Source: a virus. Taken from it: 64,000 nucleotides of DNA. A program made the position numbers and the translations under genes. The stretch covers positions 74,918-138,917 of IMG/VR virus record IMGVR_UViG_3300029922_000017, one strand, 5' to 3'. Below are positions 103 to 50,883 of this stretch, one piece after another (within the stretch, counting starts at the first letter, position 1; each line of letters starts with the position of its first letter). A model generated the notes under the pieces. That model did not search any database. It worked only from the letters and a program-made list of their open reading frames with translations, and had not been told where the DNA came from.

Positions 103-462
103 ATGAAACATAAAACGATTGATGAATTTACTGGCCCGCCGGCTGGCACCTTTAAGAAATTCTTAAATATGAAAAAAATTAAAGCATTACAACTCCTGCA
201 AAAGTCATATTCCCAATCCATTGAAGAAAATGGCGATGTTGATAGAATTGAATTTCAAGGTGGCGTTGAAGAGATGTCATTTGATATTAATTCAATTGCC
301 GTTTCTCTTTATACCGACAATGAAACTTGTATTTTTGAATATCATTTCACCAAACAGAATTTGATTGATGCCAAGATTGAAAAGCATAAAATCACTCTTA
401 AAGATGTAGATGATAATGAAGTTGGTATCTTTTGTTATCATTCTGTGCCGTGTGAATTGTAA
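103..462 (+). CDS. hypothetical phage protein
   Basis: 119-aa ORF directly after a consensus promoter. Confidence 0.7.
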   Translation: MKHKTIDEFTGPPAGTFKKFLNMKKIKALQLLQKSYSQSIEENGDVDRIEFQGGVEEMSFDINSIAVSLYTDNETCIFEYHFTKQNLIDAKIEKHKITLKDVDDNEVGIFCYHSVPCEL

Positions 463-1518: not shown

Positions 1519-1689
1519 ATGAAAAACAAATTCCCAATTGGTAGTGAAGTAACTGCAACTCCGAAAGACGGAGATTTTGCCAACGAATTCACCGGTATTG
1601 TTGTTAGTCACAATAAAGGATACATTCAAGTCCGTGACCAAGATGATAATGTATTTGATTGTGATGAAATTCAATTGACTTTGGAATAA
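1519..1689 (+). CDS. small hypothetical protein (56 aa, not in ORF track)
   Basis: MKNKFPIGSEVTATPKDGDF...; directly after TTGACA...TATACT. Confidence 0.65.
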   Translation: MKNKFPIGSEVTATPKDGDFANEFTGIVVSHNKGYIQVRDQDDNVFDCDEIQLTLE

Positions 1690-1740
1690 AAATTGATATA
1701 CTCAATTTATAGTTAAAACAAAAAACAAAACAAAACAAAC

Positions 1741-2202
1741 ATGAAAAACAAAAACAAAAAGAACGAAGTTCGTGGCGTCGGTCGTCCCTCCGCTACGATT
1801 AACTACCCCAACCGTAAATTCACCTTTTCCGATTTGAAGGCTGAAAATACTCACGTTACACCGCTCTGCCTCCGCAAGCATCTGGAAAAGGATGCGTTGC
1901 TCGGCAAGAAGTCGCTGATTGTGAAGTTGGACGAAAAGCGTCCCACTGAAAGCGGCAAGGGTCGCAAGCTCGAAGTGTATCAAAAGCGTTCCCGTCAGGG
2001 TATTGGCTCGGTTGCCAAGACGGTTAAGCCGGTGACGAAGACCGTCACTGTGCCGGTGGTGGCGATTGCTACCCCTGCGGCTGATACTATCCCCATCCCT
2101 ACCCCCACGGTGGAGACGGCTACGATTGCAGTTTCGCCCACGTCGCCCGAAATTAAGGCTCTGGCCGATGAATTGATTGGCAAGACTCCGGCAGTTGCCT
2201 AA
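1741..2202 (+). CDS. basic, probably DNA-binding protein with Pro/Thr/Ala-rich tail
   Basis: Lys/Arg-rich, RGVGRP and GKGRK motifs, GC-richer codon usage, own terminator. Confidence 0.7.
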   Translation: MKNKNKKNEVRGVGRPSATINYPNRKFTFSDLKAENTHVTPLCLRKHLEKDALLGKKSLIVKLDEKRPTESGKGRKLEVYQKRSRQGIGSVAKTVKPVTKTVTVPVVAIATPAADTIPIPTPTVETATIAVSPTSPEIKALADELIGKTPAVA

Positions 2203-2583: not shown

Positions 2584-3384
2584 ATGAAACTATTAAATGT
2601 TGGCACCGACTCTAAAACAATCAAAGGTGAAGTGTTTGGTTATTACACTGCTATCTTATATCTTGCACCGGCCAATGAAAGCGGTGAAATTAATACTTGC
2701 CCCAATGCTTCAAATGGTTGTAAATCCGCTTGTCTCTACAATTCAGGATTGGCTGGGGTATTTCCTACCATTAAAGAAGCAAGAATTAATAAAACTAAAT
2801 TCTTTGTTGAAAATCGCCAAGGATTTATGGAAACTTTGATCGGTGATATTAATAAATTAATTGCTATGTCAAAGCGTGACCAGATGACTGGTGTTGTGAG
2901 ACTTAATGGCACGTCGGACCTTGCTTGGGAAAGTATTAAGATTAATGGTAAAAATATCATGGAGCATTTTCCTGATATTACCTTCTATGATTATACAAAG
3001 TCTATTTCTCGTATGATGCGTTTTCTTAAAGGTCAATTTCCTAAAAATTATTATTTGACTTTTAGCCGGAGTGAAGATAATTATGAAAGTTGCCGGAAAG
3101 TTTTGCGGAATGGTGGCAACGTCGCCGCTGTATTTCTCAAAAATCTGCCGGAAAAATTCATGGGTAAAACGGTTATTGTTGGTGATGATAGCGATTTGCG
3201 CTTTAATGATTTGAAGAATGTTATTGTCGGCTTAACGGAAAAGGGAAGTAAAGCCAAAAAAGATAAATCGGGATTTGTTATTAAGGTGGCATTGAATAAA
3301 TTGAAAGTTGCTGGTTTTGTGGATTATTCTACGCCCCTGAAATTCAGCATGAAAAAGAACGGAATTCAATTGACAGTTGCCTAA
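2584..3384 (+). CDS. Gp88-like phage protein (Cys cluster, Fe-S/radical-SAM-like)
   Basis: TCPNASNGCKSACL, VRLNGTSD, FYDYTK, GDDSDLRF motifs; start moved to ATG 2584 after the promoter. Confidence 0.65.
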   Translation: MKLLNVGTDSKTIKGEVFGYYTAILYLAPANESGEINTCPNASNGCKSACLYNSGLAGVFPTIKEARINKTKFFVENRQGFMETLIGDINKLIAMSKRDQMTGVVRLNGTSDLAWESIKINGKNIMEHFPDITFYDYTKSISRMMRFLKGQFPKNYYLTFSRSEDNYESCRKVLRNGGNVAAVFLKNLPEKFMGKTVIVGDDSDLRFNDLKNVIVGLTEKGSKAKKDKSGFVIKVALNKLKVAGFVDYSTPLKFSMKKNGIQLTVA

Positions 3385-5920: not shown

Positions 5921-5923
5921 TTT

Positions 5924-5997
5924 TGCAGATTGTTGTAATCCGGTAACATATGAGGCTCATAACTTCATGTTCACGTTCAAATCGTGGTCTGCTACCA
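5924..5997 (+). tRNA. tRNA with CAT anticodon (Met/fMet or Ile2), slightly non-canonical
   Basis: Acceptor gcagat/gtctgc with 1:72 mismatch, anticodon arm tgagg-ctCATaa-cttca, T arm cacg-ttcaaat-cgtg, encoded CCA. Confidence 0.85.
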
Positions 5998-6955: not shown

Positions 6956-7399
6956 ATGAATTCTGATATTATAATCTATTCGGATGGTTCTTGTTCACCC
7001 AACCCTGGTATTGGAGCATGGTGTTGTATTATTAAATTTAATGGTAATGAATTAATACAGACTGGAACCGAATTAAAATCTACTAATAATCGAATGGAAA
7101 TAATGGGTATCTATCAATGTTTAAAACAAATTGTGAAGTATGGATATAAGAATATTAAAATAGTAAGTGATAGTAAATATCTTGGATATGGATTACGATT
7201 TAACAGTATCCGATTAAATAAAGCAAAAACTCCTAATTTAGATATATGGGTTCCCCTTCATAAAATAAAGAAAGATAATAATCTAAAAATTAGATGTGAA
7301 TGGATTAAAGGTCATATGGGACATATTGAGAATGAAAGATGTGATAAAATAGCTACTCAAGTAAGAAATGAATTTAAGCGGCAACAGTCTTTATTATAG
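6956..7399 (+). CDS. rnhA: ribonuclease HI
   Basis: YSDGSCSPNPG, STNNRME, VSDS, WIKGH.G..ENERCD motifs. Confidence 0.95.
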   Translation: MNSDIIIYSDGSCSPNPGIGAWCCIIKFNGNELIQTGTELKSTNNRMEIMGIYQCLKQIVKYGYKNIKIVSDSKYLGYGLRFNSIRLNKAKTPNLDIWVPLHKIKKDNNLKIRCEWIKGHMGHIENERCDKIATQVRNEFKRQQSLL

Positions 7400-17345: not shown

Positions 17346-18443
17346 TCACTTTTTTGTAACCTGATAAAGTAATTTCATCAACTGATTTCTATCTAAAGAC
17401 TTTCCATCAAGCAAGGTAAACACCATACCGGAACGATTGTTATTTTCCCCACCATAGCTAGATATGATACGCTGTGCCTGTTCACGGCGAGTTGGTAAGG
17501 TTTTAATAGAATCAATAAAATTATTCATTCCATTGACAATTTTTAATACGTCTTTATACCCATCTATAATCGTTGATATAAATCCCCGGACCATGGTAAA
17601 GCACTCGTAATCAAATTTTTGAACCAATTGAGTCTCAAACTCTTGATATGATGGCATACCGAATTCAAAAAATAATTCAACGGTATTTTCAAAGGTGGCT
17701 TCCGACTTAAAACGATGAAGTTTTAAATATTGAAATGCTTTGGATTTATGTATAAATTGGTCTTTACTAGAATAAATACAAACTCCCTCCCGGTTCTCCC
17801 ACTTCTCAACATTAAAAACTAGGTCAGTAATGTCATTAAAAGTATAGGTTTCGGGACGTAACAATCCTAAATTTTTAGCAATTAAATCTAAATCAGATTG
17901 CGTCCAATAGGAGTAATCGGAATGATTGACAATACCAATTAAAGTAAATTTTGGGATGTCGCCATACGATAACACAATCCTATTGAGTGGGGAGGTCCAC
18001 TCAAAGATATAAGACCTATCCCAAGTAGGAGTAGTATTCATATCTATTTTAGGAAGTATTTCCGATTTAAATATCTCTATTTCATGCCCATTTAATTCCA
18101 TGTTAGTAGCATCTACTGAACCACGGGTGCGAATTATATAATTATCTTTATAAGAAGTTACAGACAATAATGACCCGTCAAGTTTTTCAACCACTGTGCA
18201 ACCTTTCAACGAAGACGGCGGCGGAAATATATCGGGCTTTTCTCCCAGATTTGTAAATTTTTTAAATCCGGCAGAAATTAATTCCCCATTATGATTCCAT
18301 AAAGAAGACCGATAAATTACATTATCTTTGGTCCAAACAGCACCAATCTGTTTCGGATTTACAAGATAACACAATTCGCCGTTAATTATGTGTTCGTTGC
18401 AATAAAATTGTTCTCGGTCTATTTGAGAGATGTCGATTTTCAT
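17346..18443 (-). CDS. RNA ligase 1 (T4 Rnl1-like)
   Basis: KFTNLGE, EKLDGS, RTRG, FEW, REGVC nucleotidyltransferase motifs. Confidence 0.85.
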   Translation of the reverse strand: MKIDISQIDREQFYCNEHIINGELCYLVNPKQIGAVWTKDNVIYRSSLWNHNGELISAGFKKFTNLGEKPDIFPPPSSLKGCTVVEKLDGSLLSVTSYKDNYIIRTRGSVDATNMELNGHEIEIFKSEILPKIDMNTTPTWDRSYIFEWTSPLNRIVLSYGDIPKFTLIGIVNHSDYSYWTQSDLDLIAKNLGLLRPETYTFNDITDLVFNVEKWENREGVCIYSSKDQFIHKSKAFQYLKLHRFKSEATFENTVELFFEFGMPSYQEFETQLVQKFDYECFTMVRGFISTIIDGYKDVLKIVNGMNNFIDSIKTLPTRREQAQRIISSYGGENNNRSGMVFTLLDGKSLDRNQLMKLLYQVTKK

Positions 18444-39975: not shown

Positions 39976-40327
39976 ATTGGAATCTAATACCATCATATTG
40001 TTTTGAGTTTAAAAACCTTTTCGTTTTATAATTTGGATGGAATGGTAAGTTTTTATAAAGTAATATTTTGATACTACCTATGGAACATATACCTTTGTTT
40101 TCACACCACTCTTCTACTTCTTTTCGTATTCCTCTAAATAATTCATTATTATTTTTATCAACCACTTTTACAAATGTTGCACGAGGATTATTTCTTCCAG
40201 TTGAATATTCTTTAATTTTCTGTAATACCTCTTTATCGCCCACAAAGCGTTTCATCGGCGGCGACCACAAAATTGCACCAAACTGGTCTAATTCTTTCTT
40301 ACATTTATCACAAATTGGTTTAATCAT
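39968..40327 (-). CDS. chimeric ORF (zinc-finger N-terminus plus endonuclease-like C-terminal DNA-binding tail)
   Basis: ICDKCKKEL..FGAIL.SPP lacks its second CxxC; followed by GRNNPRA... Confidence 0.45.
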   Translation of the reverse strand: MIKPICDKCKKELDQFGAILWSPPMKRFVGDKEVLQKIKEYSTGRNNPRATFVKVVDKNNNELFRGIRKEVEEWCENKGICSIGSIKILLYKNLPFHPNYKTKRFLNSKQYDGIRFQYV

Positions 40328-47787: not shown

Positions 47788-48547
47788 ATATTCTCGTATT
47801 TGTCCCGAATGTAATGCTAAAATAGTATTAAAAAATAAGAATTCTTGGTGGGCAAATAGAAACAGTAAAAAATCATGTAGAAGATGTGTGATTGGATATT
47901 CTCTTGAAGAGGAGAAATTTTTAATCGATAATTATTCTAAATTAGGACGGAAAGAATGTTCTAGGCAATTGAATAGAACGGAATTTTCTATCGGAGTTAA
48001 GACAAGTAAACTCAGACTTGTTATGACACCCCAACCCAAAGACCCAATTAATAATAAAATATGTGTGAGATGTGATTTGGAATTATCAAAAGATAGATTT
48101 GGAGTTACCAATCGAAACAAAGATAAACATAGTAATATGTGTAAATCATGTTCGCAATATGATAGGCGTCGGTCAGATAAACTTGAAAACAAGCGAAAAT
48201 ATGATGCAATCTACAAAACTAAAAAGAAAACTTGTCCTATATTTAAACTACGCAAAATAGTAAAAAAACGAATTACACGAGCAATGAAACTAAAAAGTAT
48301 AAAGAAAAGACATTCTATAATTAAATTGTTGGGATGTTCCATTATAGACTTGCAACAGCACTTAAAATCACAATTTAAATATGGAATGTCTTGGGATAAT
48401 CATGGCTTTAAAGGTTGGCATATCGACCATATAATTCCACTTTCATCGGCCAAAACACAAGAAGAAATGGAAAGGCTATGTCATTATACAAATCTCCAGC
48501 CTCTTTGGTGGTATGAGAATTTATCAAAAAAAGATAAGATATTATAA
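47765..48547 (+). CDS. HNH homing endonuclease with zinc ribbons
   Basis: CPEC, CVRC...CKSC, MSWDNHG..WHIDHIIP...HYTNLQPLW..ENLSK. Confidence 0.9.
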   Translation: MKEKSQLEYSRICPECNAKIVLKNKNSWWANRNSKKSCRRCVIGYSLEEEKFLIDNYSKLGRKECSRQLNRTEFSIGVKTSKLRLVMTPQPKDPINNKICVRCDLELSKDRFGVTNRNKDKHSNMCKSCSQYDRRRSDKLENKRKYDAIYKTKKKTCPIFKLRKIVKKRITRAMKLKSIKKRHSIIKLLGCSIIDLQQHLKSQFKYGMSWDNHGFKGWHIDHIIPLSSAKTQEEMERLCHYTNLQPLWWYENLSKKDKIL

Positions 48548-48919
48548 TCCCTTAAAATTGCATAGAACCATATGGAAACCCCAAAAATTCTTATCTACAA
48601 TTTTCATCATATCTTTGATTTCCTGCGCCCGATTACATTGAACATTCATCCAAACATTTTTACGGGTAATTACAATGTCTTCTGGATTATATTCAAAATC
48701 GATAATTTCACCGTCCAAATGACGAATGGGATTTACATCGAAATTTCCATGAATTGCTGGCAGAGCAATTGAAATGTGGCAACCATGCGCCGGTAATTGT
48801 GATGGTATCGTATTCCAGTGCGCCACATGAAATAGTTTCTGATAATAACGGCAAATATCGTAAGAACATATTATTCTTACGCCATTCTTTATCTGTAGAT
48901 AGCCATTACTTTTATACAC
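48542..48919 (-). CDS. 2H-phosphoesterase-like protein
   Basis: Two His motifs, HISI and FHMV, ~65 aa apart. Confidence 0.55.
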   Translation of the reverse strand: MYKSNGYLQIKNGVRIICSYDICRYYQKLFHVAHWNTIPSQLPAHGCHISIALPAIHGNFDVNPIRHLDGEIIDFEYNPEDIVITRKNVWMNVQCNRAQEIKDMMKIVDKNFWGFHMVLCNFKGL

Positions 48920-48962
48920 GTCACCAGTATATACAAATACAACATCAAGTCAAGAAATTAAA

Positions 48963-49208
48963 TGAATGAAGGATATAATCGCCTTTCTGTAATTTAACTC
49001 CGACATATATCTCATTATTTCTAATGGTCGTATGCTACTAACGACTGCTTCAACCTTCGCATTATCGGGAAACATTACCCTAGCGACTTTAGAATTGCAG
49101 ATACCTTGAGGTAATAACGGGCTATTAACCCTTCCTCGGCTGTTTTTCTGTGACGAATTTCCTCTATTATAGGGCTTTACCTATAACAGCGTCGGAGTCC
49201 TTCATTCA
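48963..49208 (-). ncRNA. rnpB: RNase P RNA, minimal (reduced specificity domain)
   Basis: P1 UGAAUGAAGGA/UCCUUCAUUCA, P2 CUCCGAC/GUCGGAG, P3 hairpin, CR-I GAGGAAAUUCGUC pairing with CR-V ACAGAAAGGCGAUUAU (P4 with bulged U), P18 CAUUA-GAAA-UAAUG, CR-IV AGAUAUAUG. Confidence 0.85.
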
Positions 49209-49220
49209 AATTGAATAATA

Positions 49221-49442
49221 TCACACTTCCTTAAACAAGTCAAGGAATGTTTGTTCGGCTGTATCTCGGTTATTTAATGGATGTTCGTCTGTCCAATCAA
49301 TTTCAACTTTTTTAGTATCTCTTACCCGAACATTTAAATATCTATTATTTTCAATTGACTCTATAACTTGTTTTAAGTTATGATGACGTTCAAAATCAAT
49401 AACCTGAACTACCATTTTATATACATTTACTTTATTATTCAT
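49221..49442 (-). CDS. hypothetical phage protein
   Basis: WTDEHPLN motif; stops 12 nt before the RNase P RNA. Confidence 0.7.
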   Translation of the reverse strand: MNNKVNVYKMVVQVIDFERHHNLKQVIESIENNRYLNVRVRDTKKVEIDWTDEHPLNNRDTAEQTFLDLFKEV

Positions 49443-50208: not shown

Positions 50209-50883
50209 TTATTCGCCATATTTTTTAATTCCTTCTTCACCATATCTATTTCTAAGGGCGGCAAAATATTCATTAGTCTTAATTTTACAAGACCACACTT
50301 TGCCACAATAATCACCACGAGTTTGAGTCCCTTTAAACATCATGCCTTCAAATAAAGGATATTTATTATCGGTTAATTTATGAAATTCCGGAGTATATAC
50401 ACCAGTTCTAACATCCTCAATTAATTTATCATTCATATTACCCATATACAATACTGGAGGAATTTTAACTAATGATTGGAACGTCTCGATAAAATCTAAT
50501 GGAGTATAGAAATAATGATTTTTATGTCCGACCAATACATCAAATATGATTAATTCTTTGGGGTCTCCTTCAACATGAGTTCCAGCAAAAGATTTTGCAC
50601 CCAGAAATTCTCCAAACACCACAATTTCACGTTGATTGCGTAATTCTTTATCTTTTCTAAAGAATTTGGTTAATTCATCTTGATAATCTCTCTTAAATAT
50701 AGTAACAGCTTCTCCAAGAAATTGATGGGACTCGTCTATTAATTCACGGCGGGAGCCATATAGATTAAATCCCTGTTTAAGAGTATATTTGCACCGGAAG
50801 TTGGAACCGTCTAGTTTGACAAATCCAATTCCATGCCCTCTAGGAGCCTTACTTGAATTTTGAATGGATGGATATTCTGTCAT
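50209..50883 (-). CDS. RNA ligase (Rnl2-like nucleotidyltransferase domain)
   Basis: KLDGSN, FGEF.G, FDV, EG.M.K, KIKT. Confidence 0.8.
   Translation of the reverse strand: MTEYPSIQNSSKAPRGHGIGFVKLDGSNFRCKYTLKQGFNLYGSRRELIDESHQFLGEAVTIFKRDYQDELTKFFRKDKELRNQREIVVFGEFLGAKSFAGTHVEGDPKELIIFDVLVGHKNHYFYTPLDFIETFQSLVKIPPVLYMGNMNDKLIEDVRTGVYTPEFHKLTDNKYPLFEGMMFKGTQTRGDYCGKVWSCKIKTNEYFAALRNRYGEEGIKKYGE

Follow-up and report, generated by a model that had tools for sequence, protein, structure and literature searches.

The window considered here is a 64,000-nucleotide (nt) stretch of DNA comprising positions 74,918 to 138,917 of the virus record IMGVR_UViG_3300029922_000017, that is, the final 64 kb of a 138,917-bp IMG/VR record with a CheckV completeness of 39%. 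On its minus strand a 246-nt gene (49208-48963) lies between an open reading frame (ORF) of 73 amino acids (aa; 49442-49221) and another of 125 aa (48919-48542), and the longest ORF inside the interval does not exceed 41 aa. RNase P RNA is the ribozyme which trims new tRNAs, and its specificity domain (S-domain) normally reads the tRNA elbow. Based on homology and on selection acting on the fold, it is close to certain that window positions 48963-49208 are a selected, real gene for a miniature RNase P RNA. The RNA, carried by a virus, is a natural derivative of bacterial type A RNase P RNA at half the size; as judged from its sequence, it descends from type A and has kept the complete catalytic domain (C-domain). 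A preliminary description of the window had placed a minimal RNase P catalytic core on this strand at this site, and the local Rfam match, the fold and the covariation all bear this out.

A local-mode Rfam match to an RNase P family had been proposed as a check, and one was obtained. With 551 nt searched in E-value (local) mode, the single match is RNaseP_arch (RF00373), over the full length of the model (1-288) and window positions 48964-49207 on the minus strand (23.8 bits; E value 6.2e-5), below the gathering score of 84. The alignment contains P1, P2, P3, GAGGAAA, GCAA, AGAUAUAUG and ACAGAA..UUA, while the S-domain columns are deleted. The best clan member for the window in this cmscan search was thus RF00373, and not type T (RF02357). 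The unconstrained minimum free energy fold shows P1, P2 and P3 (z = -3.74), and none of 200 dinucleotide shuffles is as stable. The elements of the gene are given below, RNA position 1 being window position 49208; P, J, L and CR denote paired helices, joining segments, loops and conserved regions.

48963-49208, minus strand: whole miniature RNase P RNA gene, 246 nt, recognised by local Rfam search, by fold and by covariance model R2 (140.1 bits; see below)
49215-49243, minus strand: sigma-70-like promoter, TTGACT, a 17-nt spacer and a TG-extended TATTAT, with 10 of 12 consensus matches
49198-49208 with 48963-48973, minus strand: P1, 11 bp (RNA 1-11/236-246), 90.5% paired in 23 sequences
49191-49197 with 48998-49004, minus strand: P2, 7 bp (RNA 12-18/205-211), counted in a fixed register
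49165-49188, minus strand: P3 hairpin, 9 bp with loop UAAAGC (RNA 21-29/36-44), from fold and alignment
49152-49164, minus strand: CR-I with the 5' strand of P4, GAGGAAAUUCGUC, U53 bulged (RNA 45-57)
RNA 50-52 and 54-57/226-232, minus strand: P4, 7 bp with U53 bulged, the CR-I/CR-V pseudoknot
49147-49150 with 49098-49101, minus strand: P5, CAGA/UCUG (RNA 59-62/108-111), 98.9% paired, 4 of 4 pairs covarying
49141-49145, minus strand: 5' strand of P6, AAACA (RNA 64-68), a pseudoknot with UGUUU (RNA 135-139) in the P17 loop
49108-49137, minus strand: S-domain remnant (RNA 72-101), P7 plus one hairpin with an asymmetric internal loop
RNA 72-75/98-101, minus strand: P7, GAGG/CCUC
RNA 78-80/88-90, minus strand: stub hairpin GGG..CCC, with a 2-nt 5' bulge AA and a 7-nt 3' bulge GUUAUUA
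49095-49101, minus strand: 3' strand of P5, UCUG, and J5/15, CAA (RNA 112-114), together RNA 108-114
49049-49094, minus strand: P15-P16-P17 module (RNA 115-160), with the P6 3' strand UGUUU in L17
RNA 115-117/158-160, minus strand: P15, 3 bp, UUC/GAA, 98.5% paired in 23 sequences
RNA 123-126/149-152, minus strand: P16, UCGC/GCGA, 88% paired in 23 sequences
RNA 129-131/140-142, minus strand: P17, GGG/CCC
RNA 153-157, minus strand: 3' side of L15, AGGUU, with its GGU at 49053-49055
49027-49045, minus strand: extra hairpin between P15 and P18, GUCGU/ACGAC with a 9-nt loop (RNA 164-168/178-182)
49013-49026, minus strand: P18, CAUUA/UAAUG with a GAAA tetraloop (RNA 183-187/192-196)
48998-49012, minus strand: J18/2 (CR-IV), AGAUAUAU (RNA 197-204), and the 3' strand of P2, GUCGGAG, together RNA 197-211
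48975-48997, minus strand: J2/4 (RNA 212-225), CR-V and the 3' strand of P4, UUAAAUU ACAGAA A GGCGAUU AU (RNA 212-234)
48975-48990, minus strand: CR-V, ACAGAAAGGCGAUUAU

Twenty-two relatives of the window RNA were found in viral and metagenome contigs, and the helices were assessed in two alignments. The first, of 13 sequences, was made with MAFFT from sequence only, with no structure fitted, and the 5' end of the window RNA is misaligned in it by five columns. Over 41 pairs, 90.9% of its cells are paired, as against 59.9% after shuffling (the observed value being reached by 0 of 500 shuffles) and 36-44% when slid, and 34 of the 41 pairs change on both sides. The second, of 23 sequences, was fitted to P1, P2, P3, P5, P15 and P16 with R2, a covariance model built from 13 distinct sequences, P4 lying outside this model. 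Here 94.0% of cells are paired, compared with 58.3% after shuffling, and 37 of the 41 pairs change on both sides. In both alignments the observed pairing lies above every one of 500 shuffles and every slid control. Since compensatory changes occur in all helices over 23 divergent sequences, selection on the fold is required.

In the larger alignment, all 11 pairs of P1 change on both sides, the inner 5 bp of P2 are 95.7% paired, and P3 is 95.1% paired, with 6 of 6 pairs changing on both sides. P4 is 99.4% paired, though it is not in the search model, and covaries at four of its seven positions; three pair types occur at each of three positions and four at a fourth, position 3 being GC, CG or UA and position 5 GC, AU or CG. 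The window sequence of P4 is AAU(U)CGUC/GGCGAUU, and its UA at position 3 and UG at position 6 are matched changes with respect to the common GC. The claim of the preliminary description that the changes in P4 are compensatory is upheld by these counts, and the covariation of P1, P2 and P4 among homologs, which it had named as a test, is strong in both alignments. The bulged U of P4 is kept in 12 of 13 sequences (fixed register).

For P6, a perfect Watson-Crick complement to the pentamer which follows P5 is found within the region enclosed by P16 in 17 of 19 sequences, whereas a perfect 5-mer is found in 3.5% of shuffles and in 8 of 294 non-cognate combinations. Nine distinct sequence pairs are represented, and in most cases the distance from the complement to the 3' end of the P16-enclosed region is 9 nt. 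When G-U pairs were allowed the control was weak, 34% of shuffles also giving 5/5, and the Watson-Crick-only count is used instead. Automatic assignment of P6 and P17 gave 83 of 95 cells, with four rows mis-set.

P1 (11 bp), P2 (7 bp), P3, the CR-I/CR-V pseudoknot P4 with its bulged U, the GNRA-capped P18 and CR-IV all lie where the preliminary description had put them, and the other elements which it listed are present in the RNA as well, but the P6 pseudoknot AAACA/UGUUU (64-68/135-139) had been missed. Two of its assignments are changed by covariation: P5, given as AGAA/UUCU, becomes CAGA/UCUG (59-62/108-111), and UCGC/GCGA, described as P15-like, becomes P16, P15 being UUC/GAA. Our own first structural model had taken UUCUAA/UUAGAA as P15 and the hairpin at 164-182 as P18, and covariation ruled both out. 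Among 13 sequences, GAGGAAA of CR-I, A114 of J5/15, G154 of L15 and GAGAUA.AUG of J18/2 (CR-IV) are invariant, as is ACAGAA among 13 divergent members, and G155 and U156 of L15 are each at least 90% conserved. A P18 hairpin ending at the same anchor is present in 11 of the 11 sequences listed and, by eye, also in L176 and L179 (L numbers designate loci); it is absent from the four shortest relatives.

The slot between the strands of P5, where the S-domain should be, is 45 nt long, and the stub occupies 30 nt of it (RNA 72-101). The strong reduction claimed earlier therefore stands, while the figure of about 55 nt given for it does not. P8-P14 and CR-II/III are absent, so that only P7 and one hairpin are found of the S-domain of type A. 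Residues G79, A97 and C98 of the stub are invariant in 13 sequences, the same architecture is seen by eye in the relatives, and the 3' bulge, 6-7 nt across the family, ends in an invariant A followed by C. It is a matter of speculation that the stub contains a T-loop, a U...A pentamer fitting about half of the 13 sequences by eye. Outside the S-domain, the slot of the extra hairpin holds a hairpin of other sequence in L167, L176, L118 and others, and the hairpin is absent in L050 and the four shortest relatives.

The relatives were gathered by pattern and by model. A loose pattern from the conserved joints of the RNA returned at least 114 stretches in viral contigs and a tighter 3'-end pattern returned 51, while two over-specific DNA patterns found nothing in viral contigs. 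R1, a covariance model whose only sequence is the window RNA and which was built on the first, partly wrong, structure, was run on the pattern stretches and gave full-length matches in L046, L050, L167 and L157, to which a motif check added L118; L174, L179, L157, L050 and L173 are also full-length R1 matches. All of these R1 matches have an E value of 6.5e-8 or better, with scores of 95.7 bits for L167, 53.3 for L176 and 43.6 for L046. The R1-based alignments A5 and A7 are poor for divergent members and were excluded from the counts. A combined pattern returned 11 stretches in metagenomes, all of them members (seven new, four being copies of L050, L118 and L157), and three stretches in 185,579 species genomes, of which none is miniature: two are bacterial RNase P genes of the ordinary full size, and the third is a chance match. 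With R2, nine further distinct members were recognised among loci from earlier scans.

The bacterial model RF00010 matches five of eight relatives' loci over its whole length, namely L050 (70.7 bits; E value 1.4e-19), L173 (58.2 bits), L174 (55.0 bits), L175 (49.3 bits) and L171 (42.0 bits), and 5 of 46 viral records (46.4-80.3 bits), with E values of 1e-10 to 1e-27 in several relatives and all of these matches below the gathering score of 100 bits. The relatives which match RF00010 are those with a more ordinary P4, and they are linked to the window RNA through R1 and R2.

Several loci deserve separate mention. L172 carries its main member at 2332-2584, another R2 match of lower score (48.1 bits) and without CR-I, located 560 nt downstream (1560-1770, minus strand), and a canonical CR-I-like GAGGAAAGTCCGGAC motif directly upstream of the main copy (2584-2606, minus strand), an arrangement suggestive of tandem copies of the RNase P RNA, either duplicated or fragmentary. 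In L081 (355-588, minus strand) the member lies between tRNA-Ile and tRNA-Gly; given its longer middle, in which a segment contains GGGUGAAA, the member may represent an intermediate with more of the specificity domain retained. L123 (14194-14260) and L143 (1-97), in a 46,105-bp IMG/VR contig classified as viral, hold the 3' end of an apparently full-size RNase P RNA with a canonical P4 strand (...ACAGAACCCGGCTTAT) and no GAGGAAA within 260 nt upstream. This contig may come from a phage with a full-length rnpB, or the record may include bacterial DNA.

Compared with bacterial type A RNA (rnpB/M1 RNA, RF00010), the phage RNA has P1, P2, P3, P4 with its bulged U, P5 and P6 in the same order, and shares the P15-L15(GGU)-P16-P17 plus P6 module, a hallmark of type A, together with the GNRA-capped P18 and CR-I, CR-IV and CR-V. 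It differs in its length (246 nt as against 367 positions in the RF00010 model), in the reduced S-domain, in the extra hairpin between P15 and P18, in being phage-encoded with no rnpA found in the records searched, and in P4, which is of the ...CCCGGCUUAU type in ordinary bacterial RNase P genes and has been rewritten here. In archaeal type T the S-domain is likewise cut to essentially a hairpin, while the core and P15-17/P6 are kept; the accessible part of PMC13462272 describes its secondary structure as near to bacterial type A. Type T works with the archaeal proteins Pop5, Rpp30, Rpp29 and L7Ae, none of which is expected for the phage RNA. The relatives match the bacterial model, and the RNA falls outside both archaeal RF00373 and type T RF02357. 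Because the phage RNAs are related in sequence to bacterial type A, as the RF00010 matches indicate, the reduction of their S-domain is convergent with that of type T.

Engineered bacterial RNase P RNAs consisting of the C-domain only also lack the S-domain, but they are laboratory deletions, whereas the phage RNA is a natural conserved gene with a conserved stub and compensated helices. The only viral RNase P-like case met in the literature searched is the camelpox RNA (PMC3001073, accessible part). This relative of RNase P RNA is likewise virus-encoded, but it belongs to a virus of eukaryotes, resembles eukaryotic H1-type RNA, did not process pre-tRNA in vitro according to that part of the source, and is unrelated to the phage RNAs in lineage and architecture. 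The full-text literature searched, with look-ups within PMC12880540, PMC1874661 and PMC12636597, yielded no account of an RNase P RNA encoded by a phage, subscription papers and supplementary files being outside its reach.

The record encodes 36 tRNA genes, 32 of them in a minus-strand array at record positions 10.8-40.5 kb. These genes have an ordinary appearance: CCA is encoded in 28 of the 36, a GTTCRA T-loop is present in 29 and the D-loop GG in 33. In many of these genes the leader ends in TTTAAT or TTAAT, and base -1 is usually T; the eight ARAGORN calls which lack CCA include some with odd acceptor ends and may be weak predictions. In most relatives (14 of 21 loci) the RNA is part of a tRNA array on its own strand or stands at one end of it, and a tRNA gene is no more than 100 nt away in 8 of the 21. 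The preliminary description saw no rnpA in the window; consistent with this, a search for rnpA (PF00825) was negative for the window and for all 138,917 bp of the record, and five viral records with members, including one that is 95% complete, likewise yielded no rnpA. A CCA-adding enzyme (PF01743) was not found in the record. The gene beside the RNA in three relatives was considered as a protein cofactor and ruled out, being an ordinary RNase HI (PF00075) directly 3' of the miniature RNA in L175 (16-363), L176 (3766-4179) and L179 (7318-7755). The RNase HI homolog of the window (6956-7399, plus strand) is far from the RNA and 960 nt from a tRNA-Met gene (5923-5996).

We propose, with a probability of about 0.75, that the RNA matures the 5' ends of phage pre-tRNAs using the RnpA protein of the host; its expression, catalysis, partner and substrates are what we infer. 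Host RNA polymerase would transcribe the RNA from its own sigma-70-type promoter. The RNA would then fold, most likely recruit host RnpA, and cleave the 5' leaders off the phage's own pre-tRNAs. Recognition of these would rest on the acceptor stem, the CCA end and the leader instead of the usual extensive contact between S-domain and elbow. The -10 element (TATTAT) of the predicted promoter stops 6 nt 5' of the first base of P1, and the promoter overlaps the stop of the upstream 73-aa ORF; consensus matches of this grade are frequent in the AT-rich DNA here (8 found, 6.7 expected). A function in phage tRNA processing is argued for by the position of the relatives in tRNA arrays, by the retention of the L15 GGU, by the encoded CCA and by the failure to find rnpA. 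The catalytic features kept are the P4 pseudoknot with its bulged U, the J5/15 adenosines, the L15 GGU, P6, P18, J18/2 and J2/4. The importance of the bulged U and the pairing of GGU with the RCCA of tRNA are described in the accessible part of PMC11143913, and the contact of the J5/15 A with residue -1 of the substrate in that of PMC10465520. According to the former source, again as far as accessible, C-domains without an S-domain cleave pre-tRNA with and without protein, with weaker binding. More tentatively, and with odds that we consider clearly below even, the RNA could be a private, self-sufficient, half-size tRNA-maturation ribozyme of large phages, the stub possibly serving as a single T-loop-like reader, and it might act protein-free or with an unrecognised phage protein. 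If so, phage tRNA would still be supplied if, in the course of infection or defence, the RNase P of the host became limiting, was shut off or was targeted, and a single T-loop-like reader made from a stub with a conserved 2-nt/7-nt internal loop would be convergent with archaeal type T.

Several observations weigh against the proposed identity and function. At gathering thresholds Rfam gives no match across the 64-kb window, and RF00010 gives none on the whole record even at E values up to 10. All relatives were reached through motif patterns of the window RNA, so that the sample is biased toward its own J18/2 and CR-V, and the spread of the family is not measurable from the relatives found. 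The four phages closest by protein similarity, in incomplete records, show no copy of the RNA, and among the runs listed the RNA sequence occurs only in DNA runs, from peat metagenomes. Here, unlike in most relatives, the RNA gene is about 83 kb from the main tRNA array. Lastly, because P8, the usual docking partner of P18, is missing, the tertiary fold must differ from known structures.

The scores below every Rfam gathering threshold and the lack of a copy in those four phages would suit a decaying, functionless relic of a captured host rnpB, or a chance resemblance. We strongly disfavour this explanation and consider it very improbable, since all helices are upheld by compensatory changes in 23 divergent sequences, none of 500 shuffles reaches the observed pairing, and the sequence is identical in contigs of four peat runs, in a gene with its own promoter. 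The RNA might also act as a decoy or competitor which binds host RnpA or pre-tRNAs without productive catalysis, and so starves host RNase P or redirects its protein. The phage records lack rnpA, so any protein partner must come from the host, and the camelpox RNA is discussed as a possible decoy in the accessible part of PMC3001073. A decoy of this kind, which would shut down the host tRNA supply, needs no intact active site, yet 12 of 13 sequences retain the bulged U, divergent members share GAGGAAA, ACAGAA, the J5/15 A and the L15 G without exception, and P6 and the CCA-binding P15-P17 module covary. As the RNA is embedded in the phages' own tRNA arrays, a processing role fits better, and we regard the decoy as unlikely.

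About equally unlikely, in our estimate, is an active ribozyme that acts mainly on RNAs other than tRNAs, for example on mRNAs of the phage, on tRNA-like or hairpin RNAs, or on polycistronic transcripts. Such substrates would suit the loss of elbow recognition and the location of the gene here, which is not linked to the tRNA array but has genes for RNA ligase and nucleotide metabolism around it. They accord poorly with the 14 of 21 relatives in or beside same-strand tRNA arrays and with the conservation of the CCA-pairing GGU in a phage in which CCA is encoded by 28 of 36 tRNA genes, and no other substrate emerged as a candidate. Maturation of phage pre-tRNAs with host RnpA accordingly remains the reading which we prefer.

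There are two universal ribozymes, of which RNase P RNA is one, and the question of its natural size limits is an old one. A half-size viral derivative of type A that is conserved and under natural selection would, if the present interpretation is correct, constitute a natural experiment on the purpose of the specificity domain, and a catalytic RNA would join the translation-related genes carried by huge phages. It would also follow that annotation at Rfam gathering thresholds misses this class of RNA. Tools based on RNase P could also make use of the miniature RNA as a compact scaffold.

Because of the IMG/VR classification of the record and its genes typical of large myoviruses, the record is assigned to a phage. 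These genes include rIIA, rIIB, an NAD-dependent DNA ligase, two RNA ligases and several homing endonucleases; a hallmark structural gene was not found in the scanned part of the record. The best matches of its proteins among cultured phages are only about 30% identical, and the carrier of the RNA is a large uncultured phage, probably of the jumbo type. A blastn search of 50,697 GenBank phage records gave no match for the window RNA, its 20-kb flank or the RNA of L176. DNA nearly identical to the record is present in contigs of several peat metagenome runs, and the RNA sequence is identical in contigs from four peat DNA metagenome runs. In peat run X4, a 151-nt low-depth contig matches the 5' half of the RNA (window 49099-49192) with 12 differences and 2 gaps. 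Several of the differences are in the 5' strand of P4, whose partner strand is outside the contig; this divergent contig probably represents a related strain.

In the phage the RNA gene has RNA ligase and nucleotide-metabolism genes as neighbours. The 125-aa ORF 3' of the RNA (48542-48919, minus strand) has a sole match, phrog_12204, of unknown function (E value 3.6e-5), and carries two His-x-(Ser/Val) motifs, HISI and FHMV; judged on these features, its product could be a small phosphoesterase-like protein. The route through protein neighbours gave no RNA homologs. In L002, the lone relative of this ORF, the upstream DNA proved to be a tandem repeat and a promoter rather than RNase P, with imperfect repeats of about 12 nt (GGCAACGAGGGA-like) at positions 50-150 followed by a promoter-like TTGACA...TAATGGTAAT. 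The two RNA ligase genes (window 50209-50883 and 17346-18443, both on the minus strand) belong to family PF09414 and to the T4 Rnl1-like phrog_562, and together with the 36 tRNA genes they suggest a capacity for tRNA repair in the phage. In the RNA ligase relatives L004-L007, all four of them incomplete fragments, no copy of the RNA was found by blastn, RF00373, R1 or R2, a result which in fragments is no proof of absence.

Inside the tRNA array of L167, a weak tmRNA-like Rfam match was observed at 2450-2529 on the minus strand (19.4 bits, with a gathering score of 47; E value 6e-4). Finally, the motif AATTTCTTGAC, with a -35-like TTGAC, is present 3' of the RNase P RNA in the window (48926-48953, minus strand) and in L167, its closest relative, and recurs 3' of a tRNA-Gly gene at record positions 40309-40320; it is probably a recurrent phage promoter context.

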